Virus record (IMG/VR): IMGVR_UViG_3300045988_172415
Origin: a virus
Length of the DNA: 64,000 bases
Strand: one strand, 5' to 3'
Part shown: positions 47,358 to 63,988 of the stretch, one piece after another
Numbering within the stretch: the first letter of the stretch is position 1
Layout: each line of letters opens with the position of its first letter
Made by a program: the position numbers and the translations under genes
Notes under the pieces: generated by a model
What the model was told of the DNA's origin: nothing
Database searches by the model: none
Seen by the model: the letters and a program-made list of their open reading frames with translations, nothing else

Positions 47358-47472
47358 TGCTGTCTCCTTGATTTTATAATAATTATAATAAGTATAATGC
47401 TTTAAAAGTTAATGAGGAACAGTTTTCGTTTTGGTTCCCGTCTCTCTTTTTGTGTTTTATCCTCTCTTGAGG

Positions 47473-47496
47473 TATACTGGAATCGTTCACACAAAA
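47473..47496 (+). promoter_or_regulatory. conserved promoter/operator module copy ('TATACTGGAATCGTTCACACAAAA')
   Basis: First plus-strand copy of the ~23-nt motif. Each copy lies ~25–45 nt upstream of an RBS and ATG. Confidence 0.55.
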
Positions 47497-47523
47497 GTAA
47501 GTTGAAGGACATAAGGAGAAAAA

Positions 47524-47865
47524 ATGAACAAGTCCACATATTTCACCCAATATGGTGCCGAGGATTACAACATCTTCGCCAACGCTAACAAGTCCAAGTC
47601 CTATGTTCTGAGCCGTTTCATGGACGACCCCGAGGGTGCCTACTTCATGCTTTTCGAGCATGTCGAAGGATGTGAGGGTGTCAACTATTACATGTTTGAG
47701 CGTCTTCCGGAGTCCCTTCCAGACATTCCGGAGAACGTTCTGAATGGTATTCCGGATGGTGAGTATTCCGATGGGGAGTTCGCCAAGAGGATTAATGGTC
47801 ATAGTCGGTTCGTTCACAATATCCATATCCGTAGGCTTCTGCACCATTCCAAGCTTGGTGCCTGA
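47524..47865 (+). CDS. small hypothetical protein (113 aa), paralog of 53247–53555
   Basis: Shares 'GAEDYNIF', 'FEH(V/I)EG', and 'NI(H/N)IRR(L/I)L' with the 53247 gene. Confidence 0.5.
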   Translation: MNKSTYFTQYGAEDYNIFANANKSKSYVLSRFMDDPEGAYFMLFEHVEGCEGVNYYMFERLPESLPDIPENVLNGIPDGEYSDGEFAKRINGHSRFVHNIHIRRLLHHSKLGA

Positions 47866-47969
47866 GGTTTTTGTCGGATAGCGTTCTTCTTGCCTTTTGG
47901 ACTGGGGAGCGTTTTTGTTTTTCTGAGGGTTGTTTGCGTGTTTTTGGGCGTGTTGTGTTCATACTCAGG

Positions 47970-47993
47970 TATACTGGAATTGTTCACACAAAA
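47970..47993 (+). promoter_or_regulatory. conserved promoter/operator module copy
   Basis: 'TATACTGGAATTGTTCACACAAAA'. Confidence 0.55.
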
Positions 47994-48020
47994 AGAAGTC
48001 TGAAACACAAGGAGTAAAAA

Positions 48021-48845
48021 ATGAGCGACATCAACACCATCATCGAACGTATCAACAACCTTATGGCAATAGCCGAAAACGAAGCTTCCAGTGACAATGA
48101 GGCGCAAATGGCGTTCGAGCGGGCACAGAAACTCATCAACGAATATCGTATCGAAGACTGGAAACGCGACCGCACCCGCACGAACAAGCCAATCATCGAA
48201 CGTGGCGTGAACGTAAGCAAAACCACCATCTACCATCAGCAAGGCTACCTTGCGACCATCATCGCCCAAGCTAACGAATGCCGCGCCTACCTTCACGAAA
48301 GCCGGTGTGGCGGAAGGATTGAGGAACGTGCCGTCATGTTCGTAGGCGAGGAGGACGATGTGAACGCCGCAGTCATTCTCTTCCAAAGCATCGACCTGTA
48401 CTGCTCAGTCCACGCCCGCACTAGCTACGCGGACATGATTGACCAGCACGCCAAAGCGTACTATGAGGACAACAAGGAATACGTCGAAACGCATTACGGA
48501 CATGAATCCTATCCGACGCTGACGGAATGCAAACAGTACATGCGTCGTGATTATCCACGCGCCAAGTTCTACTATGGTTATCGCGGTGGATTCAACGAAC
48601 GTTTAAGCGAACGTTTCGAGGAGCTTCGCAAGCAGAGCTTGGACATTCCCTCCGGTCGTGAGCTTGTGGCCCGCAAGAGCCAGCGTGTCAACGACTATTT
48701 CGACAATCTCGAACTGGAAGCAGCTCGCGTCGCCACCGCCCGTGGTAGCAAGGCTGGGTTCGTTTGTGGTGTGAGCGACGCGAACAATGTGGGTTTGGGC
48801 TTGTCTGAAATGGGTGTTTCGTCCCATGCTTTGCTGAATGCCTGA
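48021..48845 (+). CDS. DUF2786-like protein (plasmid leading-region family)
   Basis: N-terminus 'INTIIERINNLMAIAENEASSDNEAQMAFERAQKLINEY' matches the DUF2786 helical N-domain pattern. Confidence 0.4.
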   Translation: MSDINTIIERINNLMAIAENEASSDNEAQMAFERAQKLINEYRIEDWKRDRTRTNKPIIERGVNVSKTTIYHQQGYLATIIAQANECRAYLHESRCGGRIEERAVMFVGEEDDVNAAVILFQSIDLYCSVHARTSYADMIDQHAKAYYEDNKEYVETHYGHESYPTLTECKQYMRRDYPRAKFYYGYRGGFNERLSERFEELRKQSLDIPSGRELVARKSQRVNDYFDNLELEAARVATARGSKAGFVCGVSDANNVGLGLSEMGVSSHALLNA

Positions 48846-48850
48846 CTTTT

Positions 48851-48896
48851 CAGCCCGTCTTCCTGATTTGGGAGGTGGGCTGTTTTTGTTTTTCTA
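48851..48896 (+). terminator. rho-independent terminator
   Basis: Stem CAGCCC...GGGCTG followed by TTTTTGTTTTT. Confidence 0.4.
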
Positions 48897-48906
48897 CCAA
48901 ACATGG

Positions 48907-48930
48907 TATACTGGGATTGTTCACACAAAA
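48907..48930 (+). promoter_or_regulatory. conserved promoter/operator module copy
   Basis: 'TATACTGGGATTGTTCACACAAAA'. Confidence 0.55.
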
Positions 48931-48957
48931 GATAGATTCCAACAAGGAGGAACAAAA

Positions 48958-49452
48958 ATGATTAAGACAATCACCAACCTCAAAATCACCAAACTACGCG
49001 AACTCTCCACCTTGTCAGTGGATAGTGAATATCTCACAATAGACTACTTGGACGAGGATGGCGAAGAACAGCGAATCGAAAAACTCACCCACGAGGAAGA
49101 CCTTGGCGAATACAATGTCAAGACCGACCCTTGGGCGGACATTCTCGAAGATTGGCGGCTCACCAAGCCGATTCCAGTACCCTCTGCCGAAAAAGAAGAC
49201 TGGAAACTACTGGAAGACTATCTCTGGAACCTCACCGACTCGAAGTATCAGGAACTTTTGGACAATCGCAACAAATTATACGAAGCCGACGACGTGGCGA
49301 GCATCCTCCGCAGCATCAGCCGTCTCAGCGACGTAGGACGAGCCACGTTGAACAAACTGCTGGACAATGGTTCCAAGGACGCGGAGGACGAGTATGAGGA
49401 ACAGTGGAACCGTATCGTCCCGCTCCGTCAGACGGACGGCGAGGAAGAATAG
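48958..49452 (+). CDS. acidic hypothetical protein (164 aa)
   Basis: Start after RBS AAGGAGG; the track ORF starts upstream at 48838. Confidence 0.45.
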   Translation: MIKTITNLKITKLRELSTLSVDSEYLTIDYLDEDGEEQRIEKLTHEEDLGEYNVKTDPWADILEDWRLTKPIPVPSAEKEDWKLLEDYLWNLTDSKYQELLDNRNKLYEADDVASILRSISRLSDVGRATLNKLLDNGSKDAEDEYEEQWNRIVPLRQTDGEEE

Positions 49453-49465
49453 GAGGAACGGGAAA

Positions 49466-49843
49466 ATGAAGGCAAGAGACGTTAGTTTCTTCAAAAGGAA
49501 CGCGTGGAAAGGCACGTATTCCAGCATCCTCACCATCCCAGTCGAAGCCTTGGCCGACAAGTGTTTCAACGCTTGGCTGGACATAGAGGATACGAATTTT
49601 GCGGAAGTCACCCTACCGGACAAAAAGCTTGCCGAACGGTTCCATGAGCTTGTCGATTCCGACGCCGAACAGGCGGAATGGGATAGATTCTACGGTTCCG
49701 TGGATAAGGCTTTTTCCGCCATGCCGGTGGATGAATTGGCGTCCAAGTTCGTGGAGCTGAACGACCCTGCGACCATCCGTCGTGTTCTTTGGGGTTACGG
49801 CGACAAATGGTATCTCGATTCCGATTGCGAGTATGAGTTCTGA
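49466..49843 (+). CDS. hypothetical protein (125 aa)
   Basis: Start after RBS AGGAGG; same cassette as the 48958 gene. Confidence 0.45.
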   Translation: MKARDVSFFKRNAWKGTYSSILTIPVEALADKCFNAWLDIEDTNFAEVTLPDKKLAERFHELVDSDAEQAEWDRFYGSVDKAFSAMPVDELASKFVELNDPATIRRVLWGYGDKWYLDSDCEYEF

Positions 49844-49855
49844 CCGTCGGGTTTT

Positions 49856-49895
49856 AGCGCCTCTCCCTTGGATGGGTGGGGCGCTTTTTGTTTGG
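49856..49895 (+). terminator. rho-independent terminator
   Basis: GC-rich imperfect stem GCGCCTCTCCC...GGGTGGGGCGC followed by TTTTTGTTTGG. Confidence 0.4.
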
Positions 49896-49917
49896 CGTGT
49901 CGTATCCCACCATGATG

Positions 49918-49940
49918 TATACTGGAATTGTTCACACAAA
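49918..49940 (+). promoter_or_regulatory. conserved promoter/operator module copy
   Basis: 'TATACTGGAATTGTTCACACAAA'. Confidence 0.55.
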
Positions 49941-49976
49941 CAAGGGTTCGCAAAACCCGTCACCAAAAGGAGAAAA

Positions 49977-50177
49977 ATGCATATCAAGGATGTTCTGCTC
50001 ATGACGCTCGTCACCATCGCGTTCTGTGGAGTGACCACCGCAGTCGCGTTCGGCATCTACTCGTTCGGCACTTGGCTGTTCACGTTTGGCCGCACGTTCG
50101 GCGTCGTGTCGGTCTGCGCCCTCATAGTCGCGTTGCTGGTCGTCGCGGTCAAGATTCGATTGAGCATGAATCGATAG
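49977..50177 (+). CDS. small two-TM membrane protein (66 aa)
   Basis: Start after RBS AAAAGGAGAAAA. The C-terminal stretch is hydrophobic. Confidence 0.4.
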   Translation: MHIKDVLLMTLVTIAFCGVTTAVAFGIYSFGTWLFTFGRTFGVVSVCALIVALLVVAVKIRLSMNR

Positions 50178-50179
50178 TT

Positions 50180-50215
50180 TTGGTTTGTGGCCCCGTCGTT
50201 TTGGCGGGGCTTTTT
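50180..50215 (+). terminator. rho-independent terminator
   Basis: Stem GCCCCG...CGGGGC followed by TTTTTGTGTGG. Confidence 0.45.
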
Positions 50216-50255
50216 GTGTGGACGTGTCTTGTTTTGTATATTTATCCAAACGTGC

Positions 50256-50279
50256 TATACTGGAAATGTCCACATAAAA
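50256..50279 (+). promoter_or_regulatory. conserved promoter/operator module copy (variant)
   Basis: 'TATACTGGAAATGTCCACATAAAA'. Confidence 0.5.
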
Positions 50280-50305
50280 CAGGCGGAGCCAACCAAGGAG
50301 AACAA

Positions 50306-50614
50306 ATGAACGACACCAAAACCTACTACCAGCCAATCTTCCACGACAACGGCACCATCAGCGTAGTCGCCGGAGACAACACCTACGACCACACCTACGC
50401 GGACAAGCCCATGAACGAAGCTATCGTGGAAACCTCCCACCACAAGCCCAATCCAATCAACTGGAAGCACGTCGTATCCAACTGCGACGAACGTTGGAAC
50501 CTCATCAAAGGCAACGTGTGCTTGGCTGTCCTGAGTGGCAATTGGGACGTTTTCGAGAACCGTCACGAAAACAGAATCATGCTCGTCACCCGCAAGGGAA
50601 CCCGAATCCTCTGA
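50306..50614 (+). CDS. hypothetical protein (102 aa)
   Basis: Start after RBS AAGGAGAACAA. Confidence 0.45.
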   Translation: MNDTKTYYQPIFHDNGTISVVAGDNTYDHTYADKPMNEAIVETSHHKPNPINWKHVVSNCDERWNLIKGNVCLAVLSGNWDVFENRHENRIMLVTRKGTRIL

Positions 50615-50702
50615 CCCACACCAAGATTGGAATTGGAAGACTGCCGTATTACTCCTTCCTTCTACTTCTCTCATATTTGGCAAAAAAGAAAGGAAGAATT
50701 AC

Positions 50703-51422
50703 ATGAAAGAACGGAACATCTCACTGGAAAACGACCTCATGATGTTAGGTCAGGAACCGATGGATGAACCCGACTCGTCCACCACCATCGAACTGCAAGA
50801 AATCGTGAAGAAGACGGAACGAAAGATGTTGAACCCACCGGCACCACCATTGAAATTCGAACCGAAAACAGCGGACAAGTCCACCGAAAACACCGACGAA
50901 ACCGCCAGCAAGACGAGCGAGAAAACCACTTCAACAGTAAACAAAACCGCTCCGAAAGCCTACAAGCCCGCCACACGCAAAACCAACAAAACCGCACCTC
51001 CAACACCAACCCCCACCAACCCGTACGCGCCCGTCGAATACGACTGCAACGGCAAATGGCGTCAACTGTTGACGGGAATCGCCGTCATTGGAATTCTCGT
51101 GGCGGCAATCGCATTGTTGGTAGGAGCGAAAACATGTTGGCGGTTCATCGCCGTAGGCGCATTGACCGCATTCGCCATGCTCCCGCTCTACGGCTGGTTC
51201 GACGAACTCGAACGGGACATGGCGGTCAAGGCAGTCGAAAAGGATTACGGGATTCGTATTCTGCAAACAAACGGAGGCAATGGACTCGCGGAAGTGCATT
51301 ACATGTTCCAGCAGAATCCAACCGTCGAAGCCGGTATGGTCTCCTATGGTCATGGCTTGGCATGGTTGCGGAGCGTGGGCGGCAAGAAGATTGTCGGACG
51401 AAGGCAGCAGGTGAAAAAATGA
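50703..51422 (+). CDS. membrane protein with an acidic/Thr-Pro-rich N-terminal region and 2 TM
   Basis: Start after RBS AAAGGAAG. A copy of the 'GATTGGnATTGGAAnACTGCCGTAT' motif lies upstream. Confidence 0.4.
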   Translation: MKERNISLENDLMMLGQEPMDEPDSSTTIELQEIVKKTERKMLNPPAPPLKFEPKTADKSTENTDETASKTSEKTTSTVNKTAPKAYKPATRKTNKTAPPTPTPTNPYAPVEYDCNGKWRQLLTGIAVIGILVAAIALLVGAKTCWRFIAVGALTAFAMLPLYGWFDELERDMAVKAVEKDYGIRILQTNGGNGLAEVHYMFQQNPTVEAGMVSYGHGLAWLRSVGGKKIVGRRQQVKK

Positions 51423-51814
51423 TACCCAGCACGGTAAGGCCGCACGTTTTCCCGCGTTCTTTTTCAACGGCGTTTGGCAAGGGCTTAAAACCGCGCTTGT
51501 ACCGCACGCTTGCATATCCGACCCGCTGCCTCCCATGCCGACCGTACGCGATTGGCTTCAAGCCCATGGAGGCACCGGCATGGATGCTGACGCATTCGAC
51601 CGGTGCGAAAGCGAATGGTATGAGCTGCTGGAGCAACGCAAACGGCAGATGAACGTGTTTTTGGCTGGCTTGTTCGTAGGTACGCTGGTGTATGCGATTG
51701 CGGCGCTTGCATTGCTGGCGCTTGTTGGCTGGTTGGTGTATTCGTTGGTTCCGTTTGATGGTTTCGGGCGTTTGGTTGATTGGGTTCGGGGTTGAGCATT
51801 TCTCTATTCTGTAC

Positions 51815-51837
51815 TATACTGGAACTGTTCACACAAA
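51815..51837 (+). promoter_or_regulatory. conserved promoter/operator module copy
   Basis: 'TATACTGGAACTGTTCACACAAA'. Confidence 0.55.
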
Positions 51838-51859
51838 CAGGAAACCAAAAGGAGCAGAA

Positions 51860-52801
51860 ATGAGCGACAACATCAACTGGAACGAAACCGCAATCTACGA
51901 ATTCATGCGATTCGAGCGCGAACCCGAACGCCGAGTATTCCCCGACCGCGACATCACCAAACTCGCCAAAGCCGGACTCATTCAGGAAAACGAGACGGGC
52001 GACTGGACTCTCACCCAAACAGGCGAAGACGAACTCGCCAACATTAGACAGCATTTCAACTCCGGCAAACTCTCCGAACTACCCCTGAAAGTCCGTAACT
52101 ACTACTTCGACTGGCGCGTATACGACGAAAAGAAACTACCCGTCAAGGAACTATCCAAAGTGGCCCTACATGACAGGAGCGCCGAGATTCGCAAGAAAGC
52201 GGCCACAATGCTCAACAAGTTCAGCAAGCTCGACAAGTTCAGCAAGCTCGACAAGGAAACGTCGAACGGTTTGGCCCACGACGAGGATTATCAGATTCGA
52301 CTCATGGCGGCAAAGAACGCAGACCCTCACCTCTTCTTCGAGGAGTCGGACGAGCGTGTGGTCAAAACCCTTATCTATAACCATAACTTCGATAAGGAAT
52401 GCGTCGAACATTGGCTGGACAATCCCAACAGTCAGATTCGCGTTCAGGCGGCTCTCCTGACCGAAGACGGCAAGGTGGATGAAGTGTTGGCCCGTCTTAA
52501 CCCGCAGGATGTGGCGCATGTGCTGGCCGACGAGCCGCAGTGGGCCACTTGTGAGCGTGTCATGAACGCTTGGGAGAACGCGGACGAGGTGGGACGTTAC
52601 AGACTGGTCAAGGTCATGCGCGACATGCCGGACTCGTTCATCAATCAGGCGTTCAAGAGCGACGCGTACATGGCCTTGCATGACCGTTTGGAGGAATACC
52701 GAGAAGCCGTCCGTCAAGTGTTGGAGCTTGGCTTCATGTTTTCCGAGGACAGTGAGATTCGCCGGAAGATTTGGGAGCGTGCCGAGCACGAGATTGGCTG
52801 A
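51860..52801 (+). CDS. HEAT-repeat protein (PBS-lyase-type HEAT-like repeats) with an internal 'KFSKLDKFSKLDK' tandem repeat
   Basis: Start after RBS AAAGGAGCAG. Repeats such as 'LHDRSAEIRKKAATML', 'HDEDYQIRLMAA' and 'NPNSQIRVQAALL'. Confidence 0.45.
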   Translation: MSDNINWNETAIYEFMRFEREPERRVFPDRDITKLAKAGLIQENETGDWTLTQTGEDELANIRQHFNSGKLSELPLKVRNYYFDWRVYDEKKLPVKELSKVALHDRSAEIRKKAATMLNKFSKLDKFSKLDKETSNGLAHDEDYQIRLMAAKNADPHLFFEESDERVVKTLIYNHNFDKECVEHWLDNPNSQIRVQAALLTEDGKVDEVLARLNPQDVAHVLADEPQWATCERVMNAWENADEVGRYRLVKVMRDMPDSFINQAFKSDAYMALHDRLEEYREAVRQVLELGFMFSEDSEIRRKIWERAEHEIG

Positions 52802-52812
52802 AAGGGGCAGCA

Positions 52813-53109: not shown

Positions 53110-53204
53110 CTAATAGTGGTAAAAATTTCCGAGTCGTGTGAATGCTTTTTGTATTTGCACGGCTTTTTGTTTTTTTGCGCTTTTGCGCTTTCTCTTAAAT
53201 ATGA

Positions 53205-53227
53205 TATACTGGAATTGTTCACACAAA
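53205..53227 (+). promoter_or_regulatory. conserved promoter/operator module copy
   Basis: 'TATACTGGAATTGTTCACACAAA', preceded by terminator-like T-tracts. Confidence 0.55.
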
Positions 53228-53246
53228 TATGAGAGAAAGAGCCACA

Positions 53247-53555
53247 ATGAACGAGTATTTCGCACGATTCGGAGCAGAGGACTACAACATCTTCCACAAC
53301 GGCAATGCCTCCTATGTCATGTTGCGCGTTGCGGACGAGAACATGACCTACTTCGCCTTGTTTGAGCACATCGAGGGTCATGCTGGCGTCGGCTGTAGGA
53401 TGTTCGACTCTCCGACTGAGGTGTTTTTGGATGCCGCCGTTGACGAGACGTGCTCCGACGAGCAGCTTGCCGACTTCGTTGGACAGCCTGACACCGCTTT
53501 CGTCCACAGTATCAATATCCGCAGGATTCTGTATCGCTCCGGACTTCTGAACTAA
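53247..53555 (+). CDS. small hypothetical protein (102 aa), paralog of 47524–47865
   Basis: Start chosen by alignment with the paralog (MNEYFARFGAEDYNIF...). Confidence 0.5.
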   Translation: MNEYFARFGAEDYNIFHNGNASYVMLRVADENMTYFALFEHIEGHAGVGCRMFDSPTEVFLDAAVDETCSDEQLADFVGQPDTAFVHSINIRRILYRSGLLN

Positions 53556-53672: not shown

Positions 53673-53694
53673 TATACTGGAATTGTTCACACAA
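53673..53694 (+). promoter_or_regulatory. conserved promoter/operator module copy
   Basis: 'TATACTGGAATTGTTCACACAA'. Confidence 0.55.
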
Positions 53695-53716
53695 GATATG
53701 CCGAGAAGGAGAAACC

Positions 53717-54682
53717 ATGGACAACGACGCAATCAACAGTCTTACCAAAAAGTGGACTGCCAACCTCGTTTACTGCTTCGAAGACTTCGACAATGAAACC
53801 CATTCACAACGACTGAGCGCATACATCGACCAGAAGCCCTTAGATAAATTCAAGGAAGCCAACCTAATCGAACTAAACAAGGAACGCGACCGTTGGAAGC
53901 TTACCAACAAGGGAATCGACCTGCTGGAAAGCATTAAGAACATCTACCAGAGTGGAAGAATATTCCCTCTCCCCCTACCGTTCCGCCACTACTACGTCAA
54001 CTGCAAACTGGAATACAACATGGAAGTCAAGGACGGAAACGTATACGACGGATTACGCGAAACCGTGTTGAAAGACCGGAGTCGGGACGTTCGCCGCAAA
54101 GTGGCCGAATATTTGGAATACAAGGGGAAAACTCAACTACAAGACCGCGACCAGCCTCGCTAAGGACAAAGACCCCGAACTACGCAAGCTCGCCGCAAAG
54201 CATACCGTTGCAAGCCTGTACTGGGAGGAAACGGATTACGACGTTATCCGCTACATGGTGGAAAACAAGCTGGCCGATAGGCTCTGCTTCGAGCATTGGG
54301 TGAAAAGCGATGATGAAACCATCCGCATCCTATCAGCACCGTTGGCGGAAGAAACGGACATAGACCCATTGCTGGACTCCCTCTCCGACGAATCCGCCAT
54401 CCAAGTCTTGTTTAATAATCCGGAATGGGTCAAAGGTAAGCGTGCCGTGCGCTTGTGGCGTCGCATGGGCGGGAAAACCGCCGTTGGATTATGTCCTTTA
54501 TGTGGGATGTTCCCGATTCTCTGATTGAGGAGTCGTTGGCGGAACCTCGTAATTGGCAAATCTCTTCTCGATTGGAGGAGTATAAGAAGGCGTTGCAGAC
54601 CGTGGCCCGTATGGAGCGCCTGTTCGCCAAGGGTAGCGAGATTAAACGCAAGATGCGTGCCCGTGCCGGTTTGTCTGATTAA
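53717..54682 (+). pseudogene. frameshifted paralog of the HEAT-repeat gene 51860–52801
   Basis: Three consecutive track ORFs (53621–54163, 54255–54524, 54455–54682) lie in frames 2, 0 and 2. Together they align colinearly with the intact paralog, for example '...MRDMPDSFINQAF...LEEYREAV' versus '...MWDVPDSLIEESL...LEEYKKAL'. This implies two frameshifts. Confidence 0.5.
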
Positions 54683-54689: not shown

Positions 54690-54740
54690 CGGAGGGAAGG
54701 CGGGATGCTGTTTTGGTGTCCCGCTTTTGTTTTTTTGGGG
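54690..54740 (+). terminator. rho-independent terminator
   Basis: Stem GCGGGA...TCCCGC followed by TTTTGTTTTTTT. Confidence 0.4.
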
Positions 54741-54764: not shown

Positions 54765-54787
54765 TATAGTGGAATTGTTCACATAAA
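54765..54787 (+). promoter_or_regulatory. conserved promoter/operator module copy (variant)
   Basis: 'TATAGTGGAATTGTTCACATAAA'. Confidence 0.5.
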
Positions 54788-54815: not shown

Positions 54816-55076
54816 ATGTACGCAATCCACTACATCGGCGGCGCAATCAACGTCAAGAAAATGCCCAAAAAACAAGCAGCCGAATACGCCAAACAAATCA
54901 ACGACAACGCCCTCTCAAGCACCTTCCCCGAAAGCGTGAAACTCGTTCAAAGTCCCGAAGCCCGCACTATCATGCAAAACAGACTCTTCGCAAAAGACAT
55001 CTACCCCCGCCACAGCGACGTGTACGGCATGAGCATGGCTGAACTCGTCAACGCAGTCAACGAATACTGCTGCTGA
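54816..55076 (+). CDS. small hypothetical protein (86 aa)
   Basis: Start after RBS AAAAGGAGCACA. Confidence 0.4.
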   Translation: MYAIHYIGGAINVKKMPKKQAAEYAKQINDNALSSTFPESVKLVQSPEARTIMQNRLFAKDIYPRHSDVYGMSMAELVNAVNEYCC

Positions 55077-55119: not shown

Positions 55120-55506
55120 ATGGCAAGCAAACAACACGGGGAACGAATCGAAGAACTGCGCAAGGACATCGAAACCGGCGTGAAGGAGCTGCGAAACTCC
55201 GGCACTTGGCAGCGCTACCTCGATTTCATGGGACGTTTCCACCAATATAGCTGGAACAACATCCTGCTAATGCTCATGCAATCGAACGGCAACTCATCGC
55301 TGGTCGCCGGATTCCGCCAATGGCAGACACGCGGGCGCGTCGTGCGCAAAGGCGAACACGGCATGAAAATCTTCGGCTTCAGCACCAGAACCGTCAAGGA
55401 CGAAGACGGCAACCCACAGTTAGACGAGAACGGCGACCCTATCCAAAAAGTCTGGTATCCCATCTTGACGGTGTTCGACGTATCCCAGACCGACCCCATT
55501 GTATGA
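55120..55506 (+). CDS. ardC: ArdC N-terminal-domain-only protein (antirestriction ArdC/DUF1738-like ssDNA-binding domain)
   Basis: 'YLDFMGRFHQYSWNNILLMLMQ', 'GFRQWQTRGRVVRKGEHGMKIF' and 'VWYPILTVFDVSQTD' match the ArdC N-domain pattern. The ORF ends at 128 aa, overlapping the next promoter module. No metalloprotease C-domain follows. Confidence 0.55.
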   Translation: MASKQHGERIEELRKDIETGVKELRNSGTWQRYLDFMGRFHQYSWNNILLMLMQSNGNSSLVAGFRQWQTRGRVVRKGEHGMKIFGFSTRTVKDEDGNPQLDENGDPIQKVWYPILTVFDVSQTDPIV

Positions 55507-55529
55507 TATACTGGAACCGTCCACACAAA
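55507..55529 (+). promoter_or_regulatory. conserved promoter/operator module copy (variant)
   Basis: 'TATACTGGAACCGTCCACACAAA'. Its -10 overlaps the TGA stop of the ardC-N gene. Confidence 0.5.
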
Positions 55530-55563: not shown

Positions 55564-55926
55564 ATGTACTCGAAAATCAGCGAAGACACCTACCGGAAAC
55601 TCATTGACAAGCTCGTCAAAATCCCATACGTGACCGGCGCACACGCCACCCACGCCATCTTCGGAGACGGAATCGAAGTCGCATTCCAATGCCCATACAT
55701 GGGCAAGATGTTCGAATACTATCTTGTGGCAGACTCGCAACATAACGGCAGACGTTCCTACCGTTGGAGTGGAGGAGTATACACGGTTTCGGTCGAGCAT
55801 TGGACTTTCGACGACGGGGAATACGCTCCCGTGGATTTGCCGTCGCACAAGCTGGAATCGTTGAACGTTGACGGACTGTATGACGCGATTGTGTCCGATT
55901 TAGACAAGGCCATGAGGGAATTGTAG
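55564..55926 (+). CDS. hypothetical protein (120 aa)
   Basis: Start after RBS AAAAAGGAAAAAG. Confidence 0.4.
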   Translation: MYSKISEDTYRKLIDKLVKIPYVTGAHATHAIFGDGIEVAFQCPYMGKMFEYYLVADSQHNGRRSYRWSGGVYTVSVEHWTFDDGEYAPVDLPSHKLESLNVDGLYDAIVSDLDKAMREL

Positions 55927-55936: not shown

Positions 55937-56311
55937 ATGCGATTCACCGACGGTAGGGAAAAGCTGGAAATTGAAATCCACGAAGGTCAGCATTCTTGGG
56001 ATACGACGGTAGGATTCTTCGACCATTTGACGGCTCCCATTGTGAATGGGACTCGTCAGGCGGGAAACGTTCGCACTCTACTGACGAACGTGTACAACAG
56101 GATTCTAGGCATGTCCGGCTATCCCGCACCGGAAGCCGATACTCGGGCAATCTACACCATCACCGACTTGGCTGGTAACATTGTCGGGGAAGGTTTTTTC
56201 GCTTCGTCCGACAATCCGGACAACATGTATTGCATCGGTTGCGGTTGTCTGCTAACCGACGAAAACGAGAATCCGTGCGGGGACACCGGTTGGTGCGATG
56301 ACTGCTACTGA
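55937..56311 (+). CDS. hypothetical Cys-rich protein (124 aa, C-terminal CxxC...CxxC)
   Basis: ORF with 'CIGCGC...CGDTGWCDDC', suggestive of a zinc ribbon. Confidence 0.4.
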   Translation: MRFTDGREKLEIEIHEGQHSWDTTVGFFDHLTAPIVNGTRQAGNVRTLLTNVYNRILGMSGYPAPEADTRAIYTITDLAGNIVGEGFFASSDNPDNMYCIGCGCLLTDENENPCGDTGWCDDCY

Positions 56312-56900: not shown

Positions 56901-56923
56901 TAGAGTGAGATAGTCCACACCAA
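56901..56923 (+). promoter_or_regulatory. divergent copy of the promoter/operator module
   Basis: 'TAGAGTGAGATAGTCCACACCAAA'. Confidence 0.35.
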
Positions 56924-56936: not shown

Positions 56937-57182
56937 ATGACCTTAAAAGAACTCCCCTACCAAGACGGAATTAACTGGAAGGAACTCGAAGGCAAGCCCG
57001 CAATTTTCAACTGGAACGGCAAACCCATGGCCGGAACCCTCTACTTGGACGGTTTTAGCAATCTCGCCGTTCGAGAACTGTCCGGCTATATGCCGGTTTT
57101 ATATGTTTGGCCGGATGATACGACTCATGTCAATGTCGAGTGTGTGACGGATTTTCATGTGTTCAGTTTCGTTGAGGATTGA
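56937..57182 (+). CDS. small hypothetical protein (81 aa)
   Basis: Start after RBS AAGGAAAACCA. Confidence 0.4.
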   Translation: MTLKELPYQDGINWKELEGKPAIFNWNGKPMAGTLYLDGFSNLAVRELSGYMPVLYVWPDDTTHVNVECVTDFHVFSFVED

Positions 57183-57612
57183 CGTAGTTCGGGATGCTGA
57201 AACTGCGGCTTCTATTCCTATTCCGGAGATAATCCGAACGTATTATCCCGGCTTTGATACGTGGTTCGACCGCACGGTTCTCCCCTCCTTGGGGAAAGAC
57301 CGTGCGATTCTTTTAGCCCGCACGGATGATGGGTTGGCGGGGTTTTGCGTTCTCAAGAGAACTTCATCGGAACGGAAGATTTGCACTTTATGCGTTTACG
57401 AGGGCTTTCGGAATCGAGGAGTCGGTTCCGCTCTGGTCGAATATGCGTTGGGTTTGCTGTGCGAGCAGTTTCCTCTGGTGACGGTGCCGGAGGAACTGTT
57501 GCCGGTGTATGAGGGTTTCTTCCGTCGTTTTGGTTTTCGTTTGTCTGGCTCGCGTGTGGGTTTGTATCGAGGTGGGAAGAAGGAGTTCTTTTTTAATCGA
57601 ACGCTGGCTTAG
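57157..57612 (+). CDS. GNAT-family N-acetyltransferase
   Basis: Acetyl-CoA binding motif A 'VYEGFRNRGVGSALV'. The start is uncertain because it overlaps the upstream gene. Confidence 0.55.
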   Translation: MCSVSLRIDVVRDAETAASIPIPEIIRTYYPGFDTWFDRTVLPSLGKDRAILLARTDDGLAGFCVLKRTSSERKICTLCVYEGFRNRGVGSALVEYALGLLCEQFPLVTVPEELLPVYEGFFRRFGFRLSGSRVGLYRGGKKEFFFNRTLA

Positions 57613-57646: not shown

Positions 57647-57670
57647 TATAGTGGGATTGTTCACAACAAA
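57647..57670 (+). promoter_or_regulatory. promoter/operator module copy (variant)
   Basis: 'TATAGTGGGATTGTTCACAACAAA'. Confidence 0.45.
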
Positions 57671-57701: not shown

Positions 57702-58073
57702 TTGAATCAAGCAACTAAATTCGGCAAACGAATCCTCTTCGATGACCACCCAACTCGCGCGGTGTTCGACACTGAGGAACTGCCAACAGATGATTCCTAT
57801 GCGCTTTATCGCGTGTATCTGCGTTCTTGGCAACGGCATTCCTGCCGACCGGGAACCGAGGATACTCCCATGTTCGACGTGATATGCCCTGCAAGATGGT
57901 GCCGTTGGATTGTCCACGTCAGCATTCTGAACTATTTGGACGGCATAGGCTGGCTGGCTTGGCCGGTGGAAGGTGGCGTCAGCTGGCGGCATAGGACAAT
58001 CGACCCTTATTCCGTCCACTATTCCACCGATACACATATTCCGGTAATCGACCTGCGCGAAAGCGAAGAATAG
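57702..58073 (+). CDS. hypothetical protein (TTG start, 123 aa, Trp-rich)
   Basis: TTG 14 nt after RBS AAAGGAGGAC. The track ORF starts at 57651 (a GTG inside the promoter module). Confidence 0.35.
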   Translation: MNQATKFGKRILFDDHPTRAVFDTEELPTDDSYALYRVYLRSWQRHSCRPGTEDTPMFDVICPARWCRWIVHVSILNYLDGIGWLAWPVEGGVSWRHRTIDPYSVHYSTDTHIPVIDLRESEE

Positions 58074-58081
58074 GAGAGAAC

Positions 58082-58772: not shown

Positions 58773-58776
58773 GCGT

Positions 58777-58798
58777 TATACTAGAAACGTCCACACAT
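58777..58798 (+). promoter_or_regulatory. promoter/operator module copy (variant)
   Basis: 'TATACTAGAAACGTCCACACAT'. Confidence 0.45.
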
Positions 58799-58822
58799 TC
58801 ACTTATCCAAGGAGACCACACC

Positions 58823-59407
58823 ATGAGCTGGGACAAATACCAAAGTCGAGACCCCAGAAGAATCGACCCAATGAAAACACCACTCTACGATTACGTGGTC
58901 TTGGATACCGAAACCACCGGCTTCAAACCCGAAAACGGGGCTAAACTCATCGAAATCGGAGCCGTGAAAATCCATGACGGAAAACTCGTAGACCGATACG
59001 AGCAACTGATTGACCCACACCAGCCAATCCCCGAATACATCACCTCGCTCACCGGAATCAACGACAGCATGGTCATCGGACAACCCGACGTAAGCCAAGC
59101 CATCATCCGATTCGACAAGTGGCTTGGCCCGCGAACCATCATCATGGCGCATAACGCGTCATTCGATTTAAGTTTCTTGGACGCGGCCATGAAAACCGTG
59201 AACGGTGGAATGTTCTTCTTTCCACACCGGTTCGTGGACACGTTGGAAATGAGCCGGAAAATCCATCCCGAAAAGCCAAGCCATAAGGTTGCCGTGCTTA
59301 TCCGCGACTATGGTATCGGTGACGTGGAAGAGCATCGCGCCTTGTCCGACGCGACTCAGGAAAACATGCTGTATGAAGCCATGCGCAGAGAGGAATTTGG
59401 CCGCTAA
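58823..59407 (+). CDS. DnaQ-like 3'-5' exonuclease (DEDDh family, DNA pol III epsilon-like)
   Basis: Exo I 'VVLDTETTGF', Exo II 'IMAHNASFDLSFL', and Exo III with 'HRALSDA'. Confidence 0.7.
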   Translation: MSWDKYQSRDPRRIDPMKTPLYDYVVLDTETTGFKPENGAKLIEIGAVKIHDGKLVDRYEQLIDPHQPIPEYITSLTGINDSMVIGQPDVSQAIIRFDKWLGPRTIIMAHNASFDLSFLDAAMKTVNGGMFFFPHRFVDTLEMSRKIHPEKPSHKVAVLIRDYGIGDVEEHRALSDATQENMLYEAMRREEFGR

Positions 59408-60231: not shown

Positions 60232-60380
60232 CGGAGGTTAACGAACATAATCAGGACGCGGCTATGTCCCTTATAGATAACGGGTATGCCGACTATTGGC
60301 GTACTCTGTTGGGACACGAGGACATCAGGCTGACCGACCATGGGCTTGGTGCCGCACGGAGGTTGGAGTCGGATTACTGA
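60177..60380 (+). CDS. possible small protein (TTG start) or the frameshifted continuation of the 59662 gene
   Basis: The track's 59961–60380 ORF looks protein-like only in its last ~70 codons. TTG at 60177 has an AAAGG 7 nt upstream. Confidence 0.25.
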   Translation: MDKKAERLLCDAYHRGRLAEVNEHNQDAAMSLIDNGYADYWRTLLGHEDIRLTDHGLGAARRLESDY

Positions 60381-60408
60381 GTTCTTAGCGTTTTCCAAAT
60401 CTCTATTG

Positions 60409-60431
60409 TTACACTGGAACAGTGGGCACAA
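60409..60431 (+). promoter_or_regulatory. divergent copy of the promoter/operator module
   Basis: 'TACACTGGAACAGTGGGCACAAT'. Confidence 0.3.
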
Positions 60432-60470
60432 TATTGTGCTCGCTGTTTTTCTTTTTTAGGAGGAGCCGGA

Positions 60471-60731
60471 ATGTCCCAGCATAGCGACAAAAGCCACAAG
60501 AACAAGAAGGTCGTGGTCATTGAGAAGGTGCGGGACAAGTATGGTTCCGTCATCGCTTTGAAGGTTGTATTGTATCGTCGGCATGATAGTGAGAATGGGA
60601 AGGTTTGGGATATGAAGCGTTCTCATACGTTCAGTGCGGCTTTCAGTCGTCGTGCTTGTAGGGAACAGGCGAAGACGTTGGCTCGTCAGTGGGCTGATAA
60701 GTATGGTGCGAAGGTTGTGAAGAGGGGGTAG
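60471..60731 (+). CDS. small basic protein (86 aa)
   Basis: Start after RBS TAGGAGGAGCC. Confidence 0.45.
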   Translation: MSQHSDKSHKNKKVVVIEKVRDKYGSVIALKVVLYRRHDSENGKVWDMKRSHTFSAAFSRRACREQAKTLARQWADKYGAKVVKRG

Positions 60732-60754
60732 TTGCCCTCTTTAATGGTTTATGT

Positions 60755-60778
60755 TATACTGGGGGTGTTCACATAAAA
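60755..60778 (+). promoter_or_regulatory. promoter/operator module copy (variant)
   Basis: 'TATACTGGGGGTGTTCACATAAAA'. Confidence 0.5.
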
Positions 60779-60803
60779 AACCATTCCAAAAAAGGAGAAC
60801 ACC

Positions 60804-60884
60804 ATGAAAAAACATCGACCCATACGAACTCATGCACGATTGGGATTGGAATACTGCCGTATTACTACTTCCTTTTGCTGAACA
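60804..60884 (+). CDS. 26-codon upstream ORF/leader peptide containing the 'GATTGGGATTGGAATACTGCCGTAT' motif
   Basis: Strong RBS AAAAGGAGAACACC then ATG. It encodes MKKHRPIRTHARLGLEYCRITTSFC and ends 19 nt before the RBS of the 60904 gene. Confidence 0.3.
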
Positions 60885-60903
60885 GTAAGAGGAGACGGAC
60901 ATC

Positions 60904-61530
60904 ATGCACAGCTTATACAAGACCGCAGGTAAATGCACTCTCAACCGAAACAAAGTGCGTTACCCCAACCAAAAGGAAGCCCAACTCGCCTTGGCCGTCA
61001 TCAAAGGACGAGGAAATCCGAAACACACTGAGAAACGCGCATACCATTGCCCCGTCTGCCACGGATGGCATCTGACCAGCGCCGAAACCGTGAACGACAC
61101 CATCCTGTCCGGGAGCGTGCTCCAACACACCAATCCAGACGCGTTCGACACAGGAATGAAAGCGTTCCTCTCTGGTTCCAAACGCGGCAAATATTCCGCA
61201 AGCAAAGCCAGCCTGACCCGACGTGTCCGACATTTGCTCCACTTGTTCGCGGCTAACGATATTCCGAAGGACTCTTGGGACAATCCATGGTTGTGGGCAA
61301 CTCTTAGATTCCAAGTCATGTGGAGGGGCGGAGACCAGAAGGCCGAACAGCTTCTATCCACTTCGAAAAAAACGGTCAAAATGGCGGGCGACATGCTCAC
61401 CGAAGACAAGGAGCCGTTCCTTCGCGTGGCTGAAACCCGGAAGGAAGCACAGAAATTACAGAATACACCACTACCGGCATGGTTGGCCGTCGCACTGATG
61501 GCCGACAAGGGAAAGGAGCAGAAAGTTTGA
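60904..61530 (+). CDS. hypothetical protein with an N-terminal Cys4 cluster (208 aa)
   Basis: Start after RBS AAGAGGAGACGG. Contains 'CPVCHGWH'. Confidence 0.45.
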   Translation: MHSLYKTAGKCTLNRNKVRYPNQKEAQLALAVIKGRGNPKHTEKRAYHCPVCHGWHLTSAETVNDTILSGSVLQHTNPDAFDTGMKAFLSGSKRGKYSASKASLTRRVRHLLHLFAANDIPKDSWDNPWLWATLRFQVMWRGGDQKAEQLLSTSKKTVKMAGDMLTEDKEPFLRVAETRKEAQKLQNTPLPAWLAVALMADKGKEQKV

Positions 61531-61706
61531 ACGAAAACGAACTGAAAGAAAGGGCCGTACACTCATTGCTCCAATCGAAGCTTGGTAAAGTCGCCCCGGC
61601 GGAAGCGTTTGTCATCGGATGGCGGAAAGGCTGGGACGAGGCTATCGACATGGCTTTGGAAATCCTTCGCAATGAACTCGATAAAGATGGCGAGAACGAA
61701 TCGTGA
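61527..61706 (+). CDS. small protein (59 aa, TTG start overlapping the upstream stop)
   Basis: RBS GGGAAAGGAGCAG then TTG; in frame with the track ORF 61479–61706. Confidence 0.3.
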   Translation: MNENELKERAVHSLLQSKLGKVAPAEAFVIGWRKGWDEAIDMALEILRNELDKDGENES

Positions 61707-61975
61707 TTTGTTCCAAATACACATGCATGTTGTGCGGAAGAGTCACCGACTTGGACACCGGCTACAAGTACATCATCTCCGTCGTCCAAACAGGCGGTCA
61801 CGGTCGATGCTCATACGCTCGAACATTGGTCATCTGCCAGCATTGCATGCGCACGCATAAAACCGTCATGACCTTGCAACGCAAATCCTTGAATGAGGAA
61901 AACGTTCTTGAATTCCACAGACCACCGAAAACCCGAAAAACGTCCACCAAGAAAACCAGCGAGAAGAAAGGCTGA
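61703..61975 (+). CDS. small zinc-ribbon-like protein (90 aa; CxxC...CxxC)
   Basis: GTG start overlapping the upstream TGA. Contains 'CMLCGR...CQHCMRTH'. Confidence 0.4.
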   Translation: MICSKYTCMLCGRVTDLDTGYKYIISVVQTGGHGRCSYARTLVICQHCMRTHKTVMTLQRKSLNEENVLEFHRPPKTRKTSTKKTSEKKG

Positions 61976-61983
61976 ACCGTTTT

Positions 61984-62871
61984 ATGGACACCAGTGAAAA
62001 GCAGATTATCGGAGAGAACGCCAAATACGTTTCCGACACCATCCCGCAGGAAACCAAGGATGGGCTTCGCACTCATTTGAAGCCCGGATACGCCATGCCG
62101 GACGGCACCCATTATGCGACAGGCAAGGATTATACGGAGTTGATGCGCAATCTGCGCAATATCCGATACTGCGGTTGTCCGCTATGCCATGACACGCAGT
62201 CCGGATTGGAAACCATTCTCGCAACCAGCGGCATGACCGTCCGTGAGATTGCCGAGGAAATCGCATGCGACGAATACGATTCGTATTCCGTTGACGAAAT
62301 CCGCGACCTCGACCCGGAACAGTTGAAGCCAGTGGACGAGATTATCGAGGATATCAACCGTTGGAGCCACGACCAGCATGCGCTCGAACACGCTTCCTTC
62401 GGCACCGTCAGGCTTCTATCCGTCTACTTGAACGTCAGCCTCGACCAAATGTACGACGAATTGGATTATCAGACGCTCATCTACACGCCATGGGAGGAGG
62501 ACTCCCACATTCACGGCTATGTGACGGTCATCCGTTACAAGGACGGAAAGTATGAGGTGGATGTTCCGGAATGCCGATACCAGTGCGACGAAACGTATTG
62601 GAACGCGCGTCGCAAGATGGAAGAATCCAACACTCCCCTCACGTTGGATGTTCTGCGTAGCGAGCCGTGGAGCAAGGAGCATCGCACTCCCGTGGCATTG
62701 CCGGAACAGTATCGTGGCAAACAGTATCATCTGGGAGACCCTTACAGCCTGTCAACTTTGCTGGACAAGCTGGCCTCACATGATGTTCCGGTGGACGAGA
62801 GGGTTCTTATCGCCCTCGAACTGGAGGAACAATTCCCGTTGCGGTTGACTCCACTGTCCGAAAAGGACTGA
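61984..62871 (+). CDS. hypothetical protein (295 aa)
   Basis: ORF. Confidence 0.45.
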   Translation: MDTSEKQIIGENAKYVSDTIPQETKDGLRTHLKPGYAMPDGTHYATGKDYTELMRNLRNIRYCGCPLCHDTQSGLETILATSGMTVREIAEEIACDEYDSYSVDEIRDLDPEQLKPVDEIIEDINRWSHDQHALEHASFGTVRLLSVYLNVSLDQMYDELDYQTLIYTPWEEDSHIHGYVTVIRYKDGKYEVDVPECRYQCDETYWNARRKMEESNTPLTLDVLRSEPWSKEHRTPVALPEQYRGKQYHLGDPYSLSTLLDKLASHDVPVDERVLIALELEEQFPLRLTPLSEKD

Positions 62872-62932
62872 CATTTTTCGGGGAGGAGCCGATATCATCT
62901 TCTCCCCTCTTACTGTTAGAAAGGAAAACCTG

Positions 62933-63988
62933 ATGGTTAGAAAAATGGTAAGCGTTCAAAAGATTGAGGGAGTGTACCCTATCGAGAACGCAGACCGTAT
63001 CGAGAAGGCTCGCATTGGCGGATGGATTGTCGTAGTAGGCAAGGACATGGGATTAAAGCCCGGCGACCATGTGGCATATTTCGAAATCGACTCCATGCTG
63101 CCCGCCGACGACCCACGGTATGCGGAATTGCAGAAACGTGGGCAGCGTACCGTGCCAGTGTCCAACACGATTACCGGCGAAGGACGCGAAATCACCGGAC
63201 ATGTGTTGAAGACCGCAAGACTGCGAGGCGTATACAGTCAGGGTTTGGTCATGCCGCTCTCGGCTATTGGCGTGCCGGAGGATACTCCAGTCGGCACCGA
63301 CGTCACCTTGCAGGCGAACGTGTGGAAATTCGAGGAACTACCGCCTTTGAAAGGCGGGGATATGGTTGGCGCTTTCAACGCGCCATGCTCCAAGTCCGAC
63401 GCTACGCGAGTGCAGAATCTCACCGCGTATTGGGATGAAATCAGGCGGATTGCGTGGACTCCGACCGTGAAGGTGGATGGTACCAGCACCACAATCTACC
63501 GTGATATGGATGATATGGTTCACGTCTACTCTCGCAATTGGGAGTTGAAGCCGGAATGCACGAACATGCAGGTGGCGGTGAAAACCGGATTGGTTGACGC
63601 GTTGGAGAAAGGCATGGTCTGCCAGTTCGAGCTGTGCGGTCCAAGTGTCAACGGCAACAGGTTGAAGCTGGCGTCCTATCGTCCATTCGTGTTCGCCGTA
63701 TGGCGTGACAATATGAAACTCGACCGTAGGGATTGGCCGAAAGCCATGCTTGACAACGCCGTCCCACTGTTGGATGAGACCGAGTGGAAGCCGACCGGCG
63801 ATGTGATGGACATGATTGCGAAAGTGGACGGTTTGCGCGGCAATGTGACTCCGAACCTGTTGGACGAGGGTATCGTCTGGCATGCGAAAGAGGATGAACA
63901 GTTGAGCGATGAACTATTCAACGAGTTGGGCCGTAATCGTTGCTTTAAAATCATCAACAATAAGTATCTAACCAAGCATGGTCTTTGA
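62933..63988 (+). CDS. RNA ligase/nucleotidyltransferase-family protein (KxDG motif I)
   Basis: Motif I 'TVKVDGTSTTIY' (KxDGxS). The N-terminus 'VQKIEGVYPIENADRIEKARIGGWIVVV' fits an RNA-ligase-like fold. Confidence 0.45.
   Translation: MVRKMVSVQKIEGVYPIENADRIEKARIGGWIVVVGKDMGLKPGDHVAYFEIDSMLPADDPRYAELQKRGQRTVPVSNTITGEGREITGHVLKTARLRGVYSQGLVMPLSAIGVPEDTPVGTDVTLQANVWKFEELPPLKGGDMVGAFNAPCSKSDATRVQNLTAYWDEIRRIAWTPTVKVDGTSTTIYRDMDDMVHVYSRNWELKPECTNMQVAVKTGLVDALEKGMVCQFELCGPSVNGNRLKLASYRPFVFAVWRDNMKLDRRDWPKAMLDNAVPLLDETEWKPTGDVMDMIAKVDGLRGNVTPNLLDEGIVWHAKEDEQLSDELFNELGRNRCFKIINNKYLTKHGL

Follow-up and report, generated by a model that had tools for sequence, protein, structure and literature searches.

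A reiterated promoter module with a putative operator on a plasmid assigned to the pMP7017 family of Bifidobacterium megaplasmids

The stretch of DNA analysed here (the window; 64,000 nucleotides of the IMG/VR virus record IMGVR_UViG_3300045988_172415) carries, between positions 47473 and 60777, an array of small genes in which the 23-nt sequence TATACTGGAAnnGTyCACAyAAA recurs 14 times on the plus strand. One further plus-strand copy lies at 26948 and four copies lie on the minus strand at 720, 1039, 4062 and 26852, giving 19 copies in the 64-kb window with scores of 20-47 bits in a position-weight scan. Judged by gene content and synteny, the window comes from a large plasmid of conjugative type, which represents a divergent lineage within the pMP7017 family of Bifidobacterium megaplasmids; pMP7017 itself is a 190-kb conjugative megaplasmid of Bifidobacterium breve whose conjugation has been shown experimentally (PMC10832533). 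Every motif copy is intergenic and has the same orientation as the ribosome-binding site and open reading frame (ORF) that follow it, with the start codon 13-38 nt past the motif end in all 19 copies. An initial annotation of this DNA had described the order of motif, ribosome-binding site and small ORF correctly and had placed the copies somewhat farther upstream, at 25-45 nt.

The first array copy (47473-47495, 42.1 bits) stands before an ORF of 113 aa without a Pfam match (47524-47865). The second, a perfect consensus (47970-47992), would drive a DUF2786/DUF7168 gene (48021-48845), whose pMP7017 ortholog also lies behind a motif (28290, minus strand). A terminator (48851-48882) separates this gene from the next copy (48907-48929) and its ORF 48958-49452, after which another perfect copy (49918-49940) precedes a 66-aa hydrophobic, apparently membrane-located ORF (49977-50177) and, beyond a terminator at 50189-50211, a copy of the pMP7017-like variant (GTCCACAT; 50256-50278) precedes ORF 50306-50614. 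The copy at 51815-51837 heads the gene of a candidate regulator (51860-52801). A terminator (53131-53165) and a perfect copy (53205-53227) follow, with an ORF that begins at 53229 or 53247 and ends at 53555, and the copy at 53673-53695 precedes the gene of a second candidate (53717-54163). Behind a terminator at 54696-54728, the copy at 54765-54787 would drive ORF 54816-55076 together with an ArdC-N gene (55120-55506), and the copy at 55507-55529 would drive ORF 55564-55926 and subsequent ORFs. A weaker copy (TAGAGT...GTCCACAC; 56901-56923, 26.9 bits) precedes ORF 56937-57182 and a GNAT gene (57157-57612), and the copy at 57647-57669 (37.8 bits) precedes ORF 57702-58073 and those after it. Another weaker copy (58777-58799) stands before an RNase_T/DnaQ-like exonuclease gene (58823-59407), the pMP7017 ortholog of which (56% identity) lies behind a motif at 81979 on the plus strand. 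At 60410-60432, a decayed plus-strand copy retains the first half (TACACTGGAAC) while its second half is a hairpin (60416-60449); it falls below threshold and is followed by ORF 60471-60731. The last copy (60755-60777) is followed by ORFs 60805-60882 and 60904-61530 and by more ORFs up to an RNA ligase gene (62933-63988), which has a pMP7017 ortholog (62% identity) in an operon behind a motif at 125864 on the plus strand. The ORF at 60805-60882 (plus strand), located between the motif at 60755 and ORF 60904-61530, has 25 codons and a good ribosome-binding site and could encode a leader peptide or a micro-protein.

On the minus strand, the copies at 720-742 and 1039-1061 precede ORFs 434-697 and 762-1019, and the copy at 4062-4084 precedes ORF 3661-4032, whose pMP7017 ortholog (34788-35150) also follows a motif (35196, minus strand). 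A decayed copy with a 1-nt indel (3593-3615) precedes ORF 3246-3578, the ortholog of pMP7017 35792-36070, which lies behind a minus-strand motif at 36118. The copies at 26852-26874 (minus) and 26948-26970 (plus) form a divergent pair 74 bp apart, located where both gene orientation and AT skew change over; its counterpart in pMP7017 is found at 56070 (minus) and 56120 (plus). The left member would drive a hydrophobic ORF of about 58 aa (about 26630-26803). The right member, a degenerate copy (TAAGCT-N6-GCCCACACAAA, 20.3 bits) absent from the initial annotation, heads a plus-strand operon that runs from 27006 via a ParB-like 587-aa protein to DnaB.

The position-weight scan, which had been proposed as a check, used a matrix built from 184 distinct copies (window, relatives and pMP7017) with a listing cutoff of 12.6 bits, and all 19 copies score above any shuffled window, the maximum of which was 14.6 bits (n = 30 shuffles). 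The 23-mer at three or fewer mismatches gave 12 matches against 0.00 expected (100 shuffles). All 20 sites listed initially were recovered at seven or fewer mismatches, two of them (3593 and 60410) proving to be decayed and to score below the listing cutoff of the position-weight scan, and the minus-strand coordinates, which had been 2-5 nt off, are corrected to 720, 1039, 3593, 4062 and 26852. The core GTYCACAYA alone occurs 19 times in the window and has TAtAcT exactly 6 nt upstream in 16 of these, so the two halves form one unit; the remaining three core matches are isolated, chance-like sites, all others being promoter copies. This coupling answers the objection that the motif is just a frequent k-mer. 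When the exact pattern was searched in 185,579 species-representative genomes, which detects exact copies only, a single match was returned, in a Flavipsychrobacter metagenome-assembled genome, with an estimated 0.3 or so expected by chance.

Hairpins with T-tracts precede the 14 array promoters in about five clear and three to four weak cases. The statement that most units end in a terminator is therefore borne out in part. An integron-type array, with its integrase, attC sites and promoterless cassettes, was rejected, as the window yielded no integrase and every unit carries a promoter of its own. Most of the approximately 35 array ORFs lack a Pfam match, and for about three quarters of the cargo no function can be assigned. 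Among the domains read earlier from the sequence, DUF2786/DUF7168, ArdC-N, the RNase_T/DnaQ-like exonuclease, the RNA ligase, GNAT and, weakly, HEAT were recovered, while the zinc ribbons could not be confirmed. The array has a single recognised anti-restriction domain, ArdC-N.

A logo of 197 distinct copies from the window and 85 related loci, collected with fixed-spacing patterns (184-197 copies), shows the anatomy of these promoters. In positions that were not used for site selection, a -35 TTG appears at -23 to -21 from TATACT, with a 17-nt spacer (T 70%, T 67%, G 46%), and TRTGn directly precedes the hexamer (T 75%, G 66%), which constitutes an extended -10 element of the kind typical of Gram-positive primary-sigma promoters. 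The weak -35 TTG at 17 nt and the TRTG make it probable that the host main sigma factor reads the motif promoters, which match the bifidobacterial consensus TTGACA-N17-TATAAT (PMC10832533). TATACT, by its place in this arrangement, is the predicted -10 hexamer itself, not the extended -10 element that it was initially taken for, which is the TRTG upstream. Transcription probably starts at the invariant G of GTYCACA, 7 nt after the hexamer, and with this usual -10-to-start distance the conserved block would span about -6 to +11, instead of the +1 to +17 first suggested. The hexamer never has the consensus A as its fifth base, which is C or G instead, and therefore seems to belong to a larger recognised unit. 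No indel separates TATACT from GTYCACA in the recovered copies of either lineage, all of which were collected at fixed spacing; conservation extends over about 24 nt without a 6-nt periodicity, and cross-lineage comparison marks TAtAcT, G, GT, CACA and AAA as the essential bases. The leaders are rich in A, poor in T and, at a mean folding z-score of 0.02, unstructured, and a search of the leaders against Rfam matched no family. A structured 5' leader or riboswitch was rejected for want of an Rfam match or of excess folding energy, and sigma-54, sigma-H and CRP-type readings of the block were discarded by eye because their spacings do not fit.

The length of the conserved promoter, about 23 nt, recalls T7-type promoters, and more than 60 related contigs are filed in IMG/VR, two points in favour of an RNA polymerase or alternative sigma factor encoded by the element itself, as in phages, as the reader of the motif. 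However, the canonical primary-sigma features (TTG at 17 nt and TRTGn) emerged without having been used in site finding, neither the window nor the annotation of pMP7017 revealed a gene for an RNA polymerase or sigma factor, and pMP7017 is an experimentally conjugative plasmid; we consider such a dedicated polymerase or sigma factor extremely unlikely. Among the window proteins scanned, PHROG and Pfam returned no virion genes, and a phage origin was rejected, RepA_C, ParA, DnaB and a sortase/pilin operon being found instead. Both variants of the motif occur in more than 60 "viral" IMG/VR contigs (8-217 kb), some of them records cut from isolate genomes, from which it seems that conjugative megaplasmids of the pMP7017 family are catalogued there as viruses.

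The assignment to this family comes from the backbone. Window 2.5-31 kb is collinear with pMP7017 34.8-60.3 kb over about 25 backbone genes, at 30-69% and mostly 50-59% amino-acid identity. The best matches of RepA in the plasmid collection are 170-198-kb B. longum megaplasmids and pMP7017 of B. breve, at 35-38% identity. The host is probably Bifidobacterium, as the matches suggest; the only named homologs of one cargo protein come from B. pseudocatenulatum and B. catenulatum (63% identity). The G+C content of the window lineage is 52.7% vs 57.4% for pMP7017, and a megablast search of the array against phage and plasmid collections found no match.

Dineen et al. 2024 (PMC10832533) described the same motif in pMP7017 from RNA-seq profiling, as a 34-bp sequence overlapping the -10 (5'-AWAYATGY TATACT GAATATGTCCACATAAAAWA-3') with 19 copies, six before highly expressed genes and 13 further ones. 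These six motif promoters are among those of the highly expressed pMP7017 genes in an established, exponentially growing host, and the predicted motif-driven set comprises 56 genes, about 24% of coding capacity (PMC10832533). The motif was reported as present in related plasmids and missing from bifidobacterial chromosomes, and was read as "likely a transcription factor binding site" (PMC10832533); we found no later literature that names a motif-binding factor. Our own scan of pMP7017 returned 23 copies of TAnAnT-N6-GTCCACAT in identical 6-nt spacing and register, spread over 28-186 kb. The consensus is shared at 19 of 24 positions between the lineages, including a GTCCACATAAA-like block at fixed distance, and differs at five, with GGAATTGTTCACAC here and GAATATGTCCACAT there. 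In both, TATACT, 6 nt, GTYCACAYAAA and a ribosome-binding site follow one another in about 20 copies per plasmid before start codons, and the same orthologs lie downstream, namely DUF2786, the DnaQ-like exonuclease, the RNA ligase operon, the winged-helix/HEAT protein, two small backbone genes and the divergent pair on the DnaB side. The plasmids differ in that 14 copies are packed within 13.3 kb here and more dispersed there, in that the dyad is shorter here, and in that the present element is known from sequence alone, RNA-seq being available only for pMP7017.

At six orthologous promoter pairs the motif is identical at 13-19 of 24 positions, whereas the flanks agree no more than by chance (7-16 of 36-40). 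The motif was thus kept as the flanks drifted, which is purifying selection on the module itself. The lineages are further distinguished by a two-base switch: GTTCACAC is found in 254 of 322 copies of the window lineage and GTCCACAT in 127 of 132 copies of the pMP7017 lineage. That dozens of sites on each plasmid have shifted in concert suggests that the motif co-evolved with a trans-acting reader, although gene conversion between copies is an alternative cause. For the sister lineage, a shared promoter/operator module defining one regulon is already published, and the initial annotation, which saw one reiterated module of promoter/operator type and probably a co-regulated set, matches what Dineen et al. 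2024 concluded for the homologous pMP7017 motif. New here are a divergent lineage with a variant consensus, the conservation of the module at orthologous promoters across about 50% protein divergence, the two-base lineage switch, the extra copy at 26948 and a concrete candidate regulator.

These data also bear on whether a dedicated regulator is needed at all. The 23-24 bp, comprising the -10, the discriminator and the first 11 transcribed bases, could instead be an optimised, portable promoter for the host polymerase that persists because any cassette carrying it gets expressed. Such a purely cis-acting module would account for the rigid spacing to the -10 and the conserved non-consensus base inside it, for the six promoters that are among the most active in pMP7017 (PMC10832533), and for the presence of the module at cassette junctions that vary between related plasmids. 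On the other hand, the 17 nearly invariant bases 3' of the -10 far exceed the needs of known discriminator and core-recognition contacts, a conserved host polymerase does not readily account for a coordinated switch at two positions in dozens of copies of each lineage, and host chromosomes are reported to lack the motif (PMC10832533) although their genes would profit equally. We therefore regard this explanation as rather unlikely.

The conserved sequence might alternatively act in the transcript, which would begin with GUYCACAYAAA and be read by a plasmid RNA-binding protein, a small RNA or a nuclease, with consequences for stability or translation. In favour of this, the predicted transcripts include about 11 of the conserved bases, their leaders lack structure and are rich in A and poor in T, and in pMP7017 conservation continues to the ribosome-binding site. 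The GGAA discriminator and the -10 are equally conserved, however, though untranscribed; no conserved RNA structure or Rfam match was found; and a locus for a complementary small RNA was not seen, as core matches are either promoter copies or the three chance-like sites. A tag of this kind on the RNA thus appears improbable.

We favour, with moderate confidence, a joint reading in which the window belongs to a pMP7017-family plasmid, its repeated promoter is a module for the host primary sigma factor, and the conserved block is the operator of a plasmid-encoded regulator. The host primary-sigma RNA polymerase would recognise the weak -35 TTG, the 17-nt spacer, TRTGn and the -10 hexamer TATACT, and the block G-G-A-A-n-n-GTyCACAyAAA (about -6 to +11) would be bound by the DNA-binding regulator. 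Placed on the start site, this regulator would jointly control how active the roughly 20 promoters of each plasmid are. Extended -10 promoters should be strong by themselves, which makes repression or modulation a likelier role for the factor than activation. On arrival in a new cell, the plasmid would then express the whole set fully, up to the point at which the factor has built up, and such an establishment-type logic, with full expression in a naive recipient, is plausible by analogy with p576 (Reg576) and the IncN plasmids (CUP/ArdK). Each unit would consist of the promoter, a short unstructured A-rich leader, one to four small genes and often a terminator. We infer the start site, the existence and sign of the trans-acting factor, and the candidate factor from the sequence.

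The candidate regulator (51860-52801, plus strand) is a 313-aa protein with a predicted N-terminal MarR-like winged helix and C-terminal HEAT repeats. It is a remote homolog of B7017_p0103 of pMP7017 (23% identity, E 4e-6), which is likewise the first gene behind a motif (79185). The second candidate (53717-54163, plus strand), a 148-aa paralog of its winged-helix domain (31% identity, E 9e-14), is the first gene behind the motif at 53673 and has an HTH_45 match (E 0.004) below Pfam's cut-off; Pfam found no other helix-turn-helix domains in the window. Sequence inspection of the block reveals a partial dyad, TGT-N2-ACA, here vs a perfect one, TATGT-CC-ACATA, in pMP7017, and 5-bp arms with a 2-bp spacer are a layout common for winged-helix dimer operators. 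Dineen et al. placed p0103 in a DtxR-type regulator orthology group (PMC10832533). That pMP7017 encodes trans-acting repressors of its own promoters is known from repA and repB reporters, which rise 3.7-fold and 1.6-fold without the plasmid (PMC8313286). The other pMP7017 regulators (XRE p0129, an ImmA-associated protein, WhiB and HigA-type proteins) were rejected as candidates, as tblastn found no match in the window and 85 related loci, which cover the plasmids in part. A family-restricted, motif-driven protein of DNA-binding type is the expected look of the master of an autoregulated regulon, which makes the winged-helix/HEAT protein a candidate. It would be a bolder, and in our estimate unlikely, proposal that this protein (51860-52801, with its paralog 53717-54163 and p0103) binds the start-site block, has co-evolved with about 20 operators per plasmid (GTTCACAC vs GTCCACAT), and makes about a quarter of each bifidobacterial megaplasmid one zygotically induced regulon that recruits cassettes via the 23-bp module. 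A KorB-like global role is also conceivable for the ParB-like 587-aa protein (27777-29540, plus strand), the C-terminal half of which matches phrog_5931 and actinobacteriophage "ParB-like nuclease domain" proteins. This protein is 47% identical to its pMP7017 homolog and lies in the operon behind the degenerate copy at 26948.

Several points weigh against an operator read by such a regulator. The pMP7017 start sites come from RNA-seq coverage, and the authors themselves term them "presumed" (PMC10832533). The block is weakly palindromic in the window lineage, with 3-bp arms, and the rigid -10 spacing would also fit a purely cis-acting promoter and initial-transcribed-region module or inheritance as a unit. 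Given the high activity of several pMP7017 motif promoters in the established host, any repression would have to be partial. The candidate winged-helix/HEAT protein is just 23% identical between the lineages and could equally be cargo with another role, and the plasmid's other DNA-binding proteins lie beyond the 64-kb window.

Comparison with 85 loci from about 35 related contigs shows that the units are present, absent or re-ordered, and alignments often begin or end exactly at a motif copy. The array thus undergoes modular turnover by gain, loss and re-ordering, with the module kept at each junction. Of the 73 distinct breakpoints, 21 are no more than 15 nt away from a motif vs 6% expected at random (p 7e-10), the others falling at further gene boundaries; the motif with 15 nt on either side makes up, by estimate, roughly 40% of intergenic space. 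As this share is similar, there is no enrichment of breakpoints at the motif beyond their being intergenic, and the motif was rejected as a recombination site for cassette shuffling.

The array had been read initially as a conjugative leading region, that is, an anti-defence or establishment island that enters the recipient first and is transiently expressed, with the motif as its early promoter. All 14 array promoters do point in the same direction, the cargo includes ArdC-N, DUF2786, the exonuclease and the RNA ligase, and genes for SSB, a DNA methyltransferase and a DnaQ-like exonuclease belong to the regulon of pMP7017 (PMC10832533, Table S1). A Lar homolog of pMP7017 is also moderately transcribed, though it is not in the regulon list of Table S1 (PMC10832533), and repressor-controlled establishment genes exist in Gram-positive plasmids (Reg576 of p576). 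However, an oriT or relaxase is neither known for the family nor visible in the window, and MOB typing of pMP7017 was negative. Motif copies lie at 0.7-4 kb, at 26.9 kb and up to 61 kb of the window, and all around pMP7017, where orthologs of the array cassettes are scattered at 28, 32, 82, 127 and 133 kb and the motif targets include CRISPR-Cas, a sortase and the DnaB operon; with such scatter, the regulon does not form a single contiguous region of entry. In the established host the promoters are active, and the high expression of six of them argues against a regulon that falls silent after establishment (PMC10832533). With three quarters or so of the cargo unassigned and ArdC-N as the sole anti-restriction domain, the leading-region or anti-defence island is not supported, and we hold it to be quite improbable. 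Nor do the promoters resemble single-stranded-DNA (Frpo-type) hairpin promoters: they are of double-strand type, and the hairpins are terminators upstream.

Beyond the array, the backbone syntenic with pMP7017 34.8-60.3 kb occupies 2492-31277 and encodes a GmrSD_C-like nuclease, RepA_C (7701-8570), ParA (9165-9827), a second, ParA-like protein, DnaB (29937-31277) and proteins of 1063 and 886 aa, the latter being the ortholog of a pMP7017 protein annotated as "AAA family ATPase". The GmrSD_C/DUF1524-like nuclease (4466-5491, minus strand) is 51% identical to pMP7017 36335-37315; the pMP7017 gene lies behind a minus-strand motif at 37500, and no copy was found upstream of the window gene. An AAA ATPase that matches IetA of the IetAS anti-phage system (24155-25111, minus strand; PADLOC E 3e-62) is also present. 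A sortase-dependent pilus-type operon (32906-41998, plus strand) comprises an SpaA/Cna-B pilin, a sortase, a 1792-aa surface protein with RCC1 repeats and SdrD B-like domains, and a DUF6273 protein. An analogous operon lies at 10-19 kb of pMP7017, with a large surface protein annotated with InlB B-repeats that gave no tblastn match to the 1792-aa protein of the window. A reverse transcriptase (43052-44206, plus strand) matches defence-type models (generic RT and UG/DRT; best E 3e-26); Rfam found no group II intron RNA and no other family in the window, and the ORFs flanking the gene have no family match. The window has no tRNA or tmRNA genes like those of pMP7017. It is also without cas genes or arrays, while pMP7017 has two type I-E CRISPR arrays (11 and 16 repeats) at 67.7-68.3 kb and 72.6-73.5 kb, and cas genes behind motif copies, cas3 not being annotated. 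Self-targeting of the motif by this type I-E Cascade, with the upstream ATG as protospacer-adjacent motif, was rejected, as the best of 25 spacers matched at no more than 16 of 33 positions and 6-nt periodicity was absent.

Megaplasmids of the pMP7017 type are reported from about 11.5% of B. longum strains and, among gut metagenomes, from about 10% of samples, most of which come from infants and/or mothers; roughly a quarter of the genes on these plasmids are said to be controlled by the motif. Its survival at about 50% protein identity, in the same register and at the same genes with a two-base switch, amounts to a natural mutagenesis series, which speaks for a trans factor that has evolved along with the motif and leaves fewer candidates for it. 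The module could serve as a compact, portable expression signal for Bifidobacterium genetics and the motif as a sequence tag for the pMP7017 family in metagenomes, including the contigs that IMG/VR files as viruses.

Similar arrangements are known from other mobile elements. In T4-type phages, Arbiol, Comeau and Krisch reportedly described in 2010 PeSL cassettes, small genes with near-identical early promoters in a hyperplastic, shuffled region, whose flanking stem-loops are said to have been proposed to mediate recombination; these belong to phages and not to a plasmid, and breakpoints here are no commoner at the motif than in intergenic space. In the KorA/KorB system of IncP plasmids, many promoters share a short operator at or adjoining the -10, which allows plasmid-wide coordinate repression, but the KorA/KorB operators are clear palindromes at variable positions whereas the block here is asymmetric and locked to the -10. 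In the IncN plasmids pKM101 and R46, CUP elements are bound by the ArdK repressor (Delver & Belogurov 1997, as cited in PMC6289460), and R388 also has an ArdK (PMC9723621). A reiterated conserved sequence lies, as here, at several plasmid promoters, including those of anti-restriction and replication genes, and one autoregulated plasmid repressor binds it and is thought to help establishment. That system is Gram-negative, has no sequence relation and fewer copies, and ArdK binding is demonstrated whereas the operator here is predicted. Comparable, too, are the Reg576/pLS20-family controls of establishment genes in Bacillus plasmids (PMC6294495, PMC8708921). There, several promoters that serve putative establishment genes of a Gram-positive conjugative plasmid, including an ardC, share an operator for one autoregulated repressor, and the genes are de-repressed after transfer. 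Reg576, a ribbon-helix-helix tetramer, acts on a dual TTATCCC heptamer operator at four promoters, vs about 20 promoters here, and no ribbon-helix-helix or Reg homolog was found in this case. What the present plasmid shares with the ArdK/CUP and Reg576 regulons is one operator-type sequence reiterated at many promoters, here in 19 copies within 64 kb.

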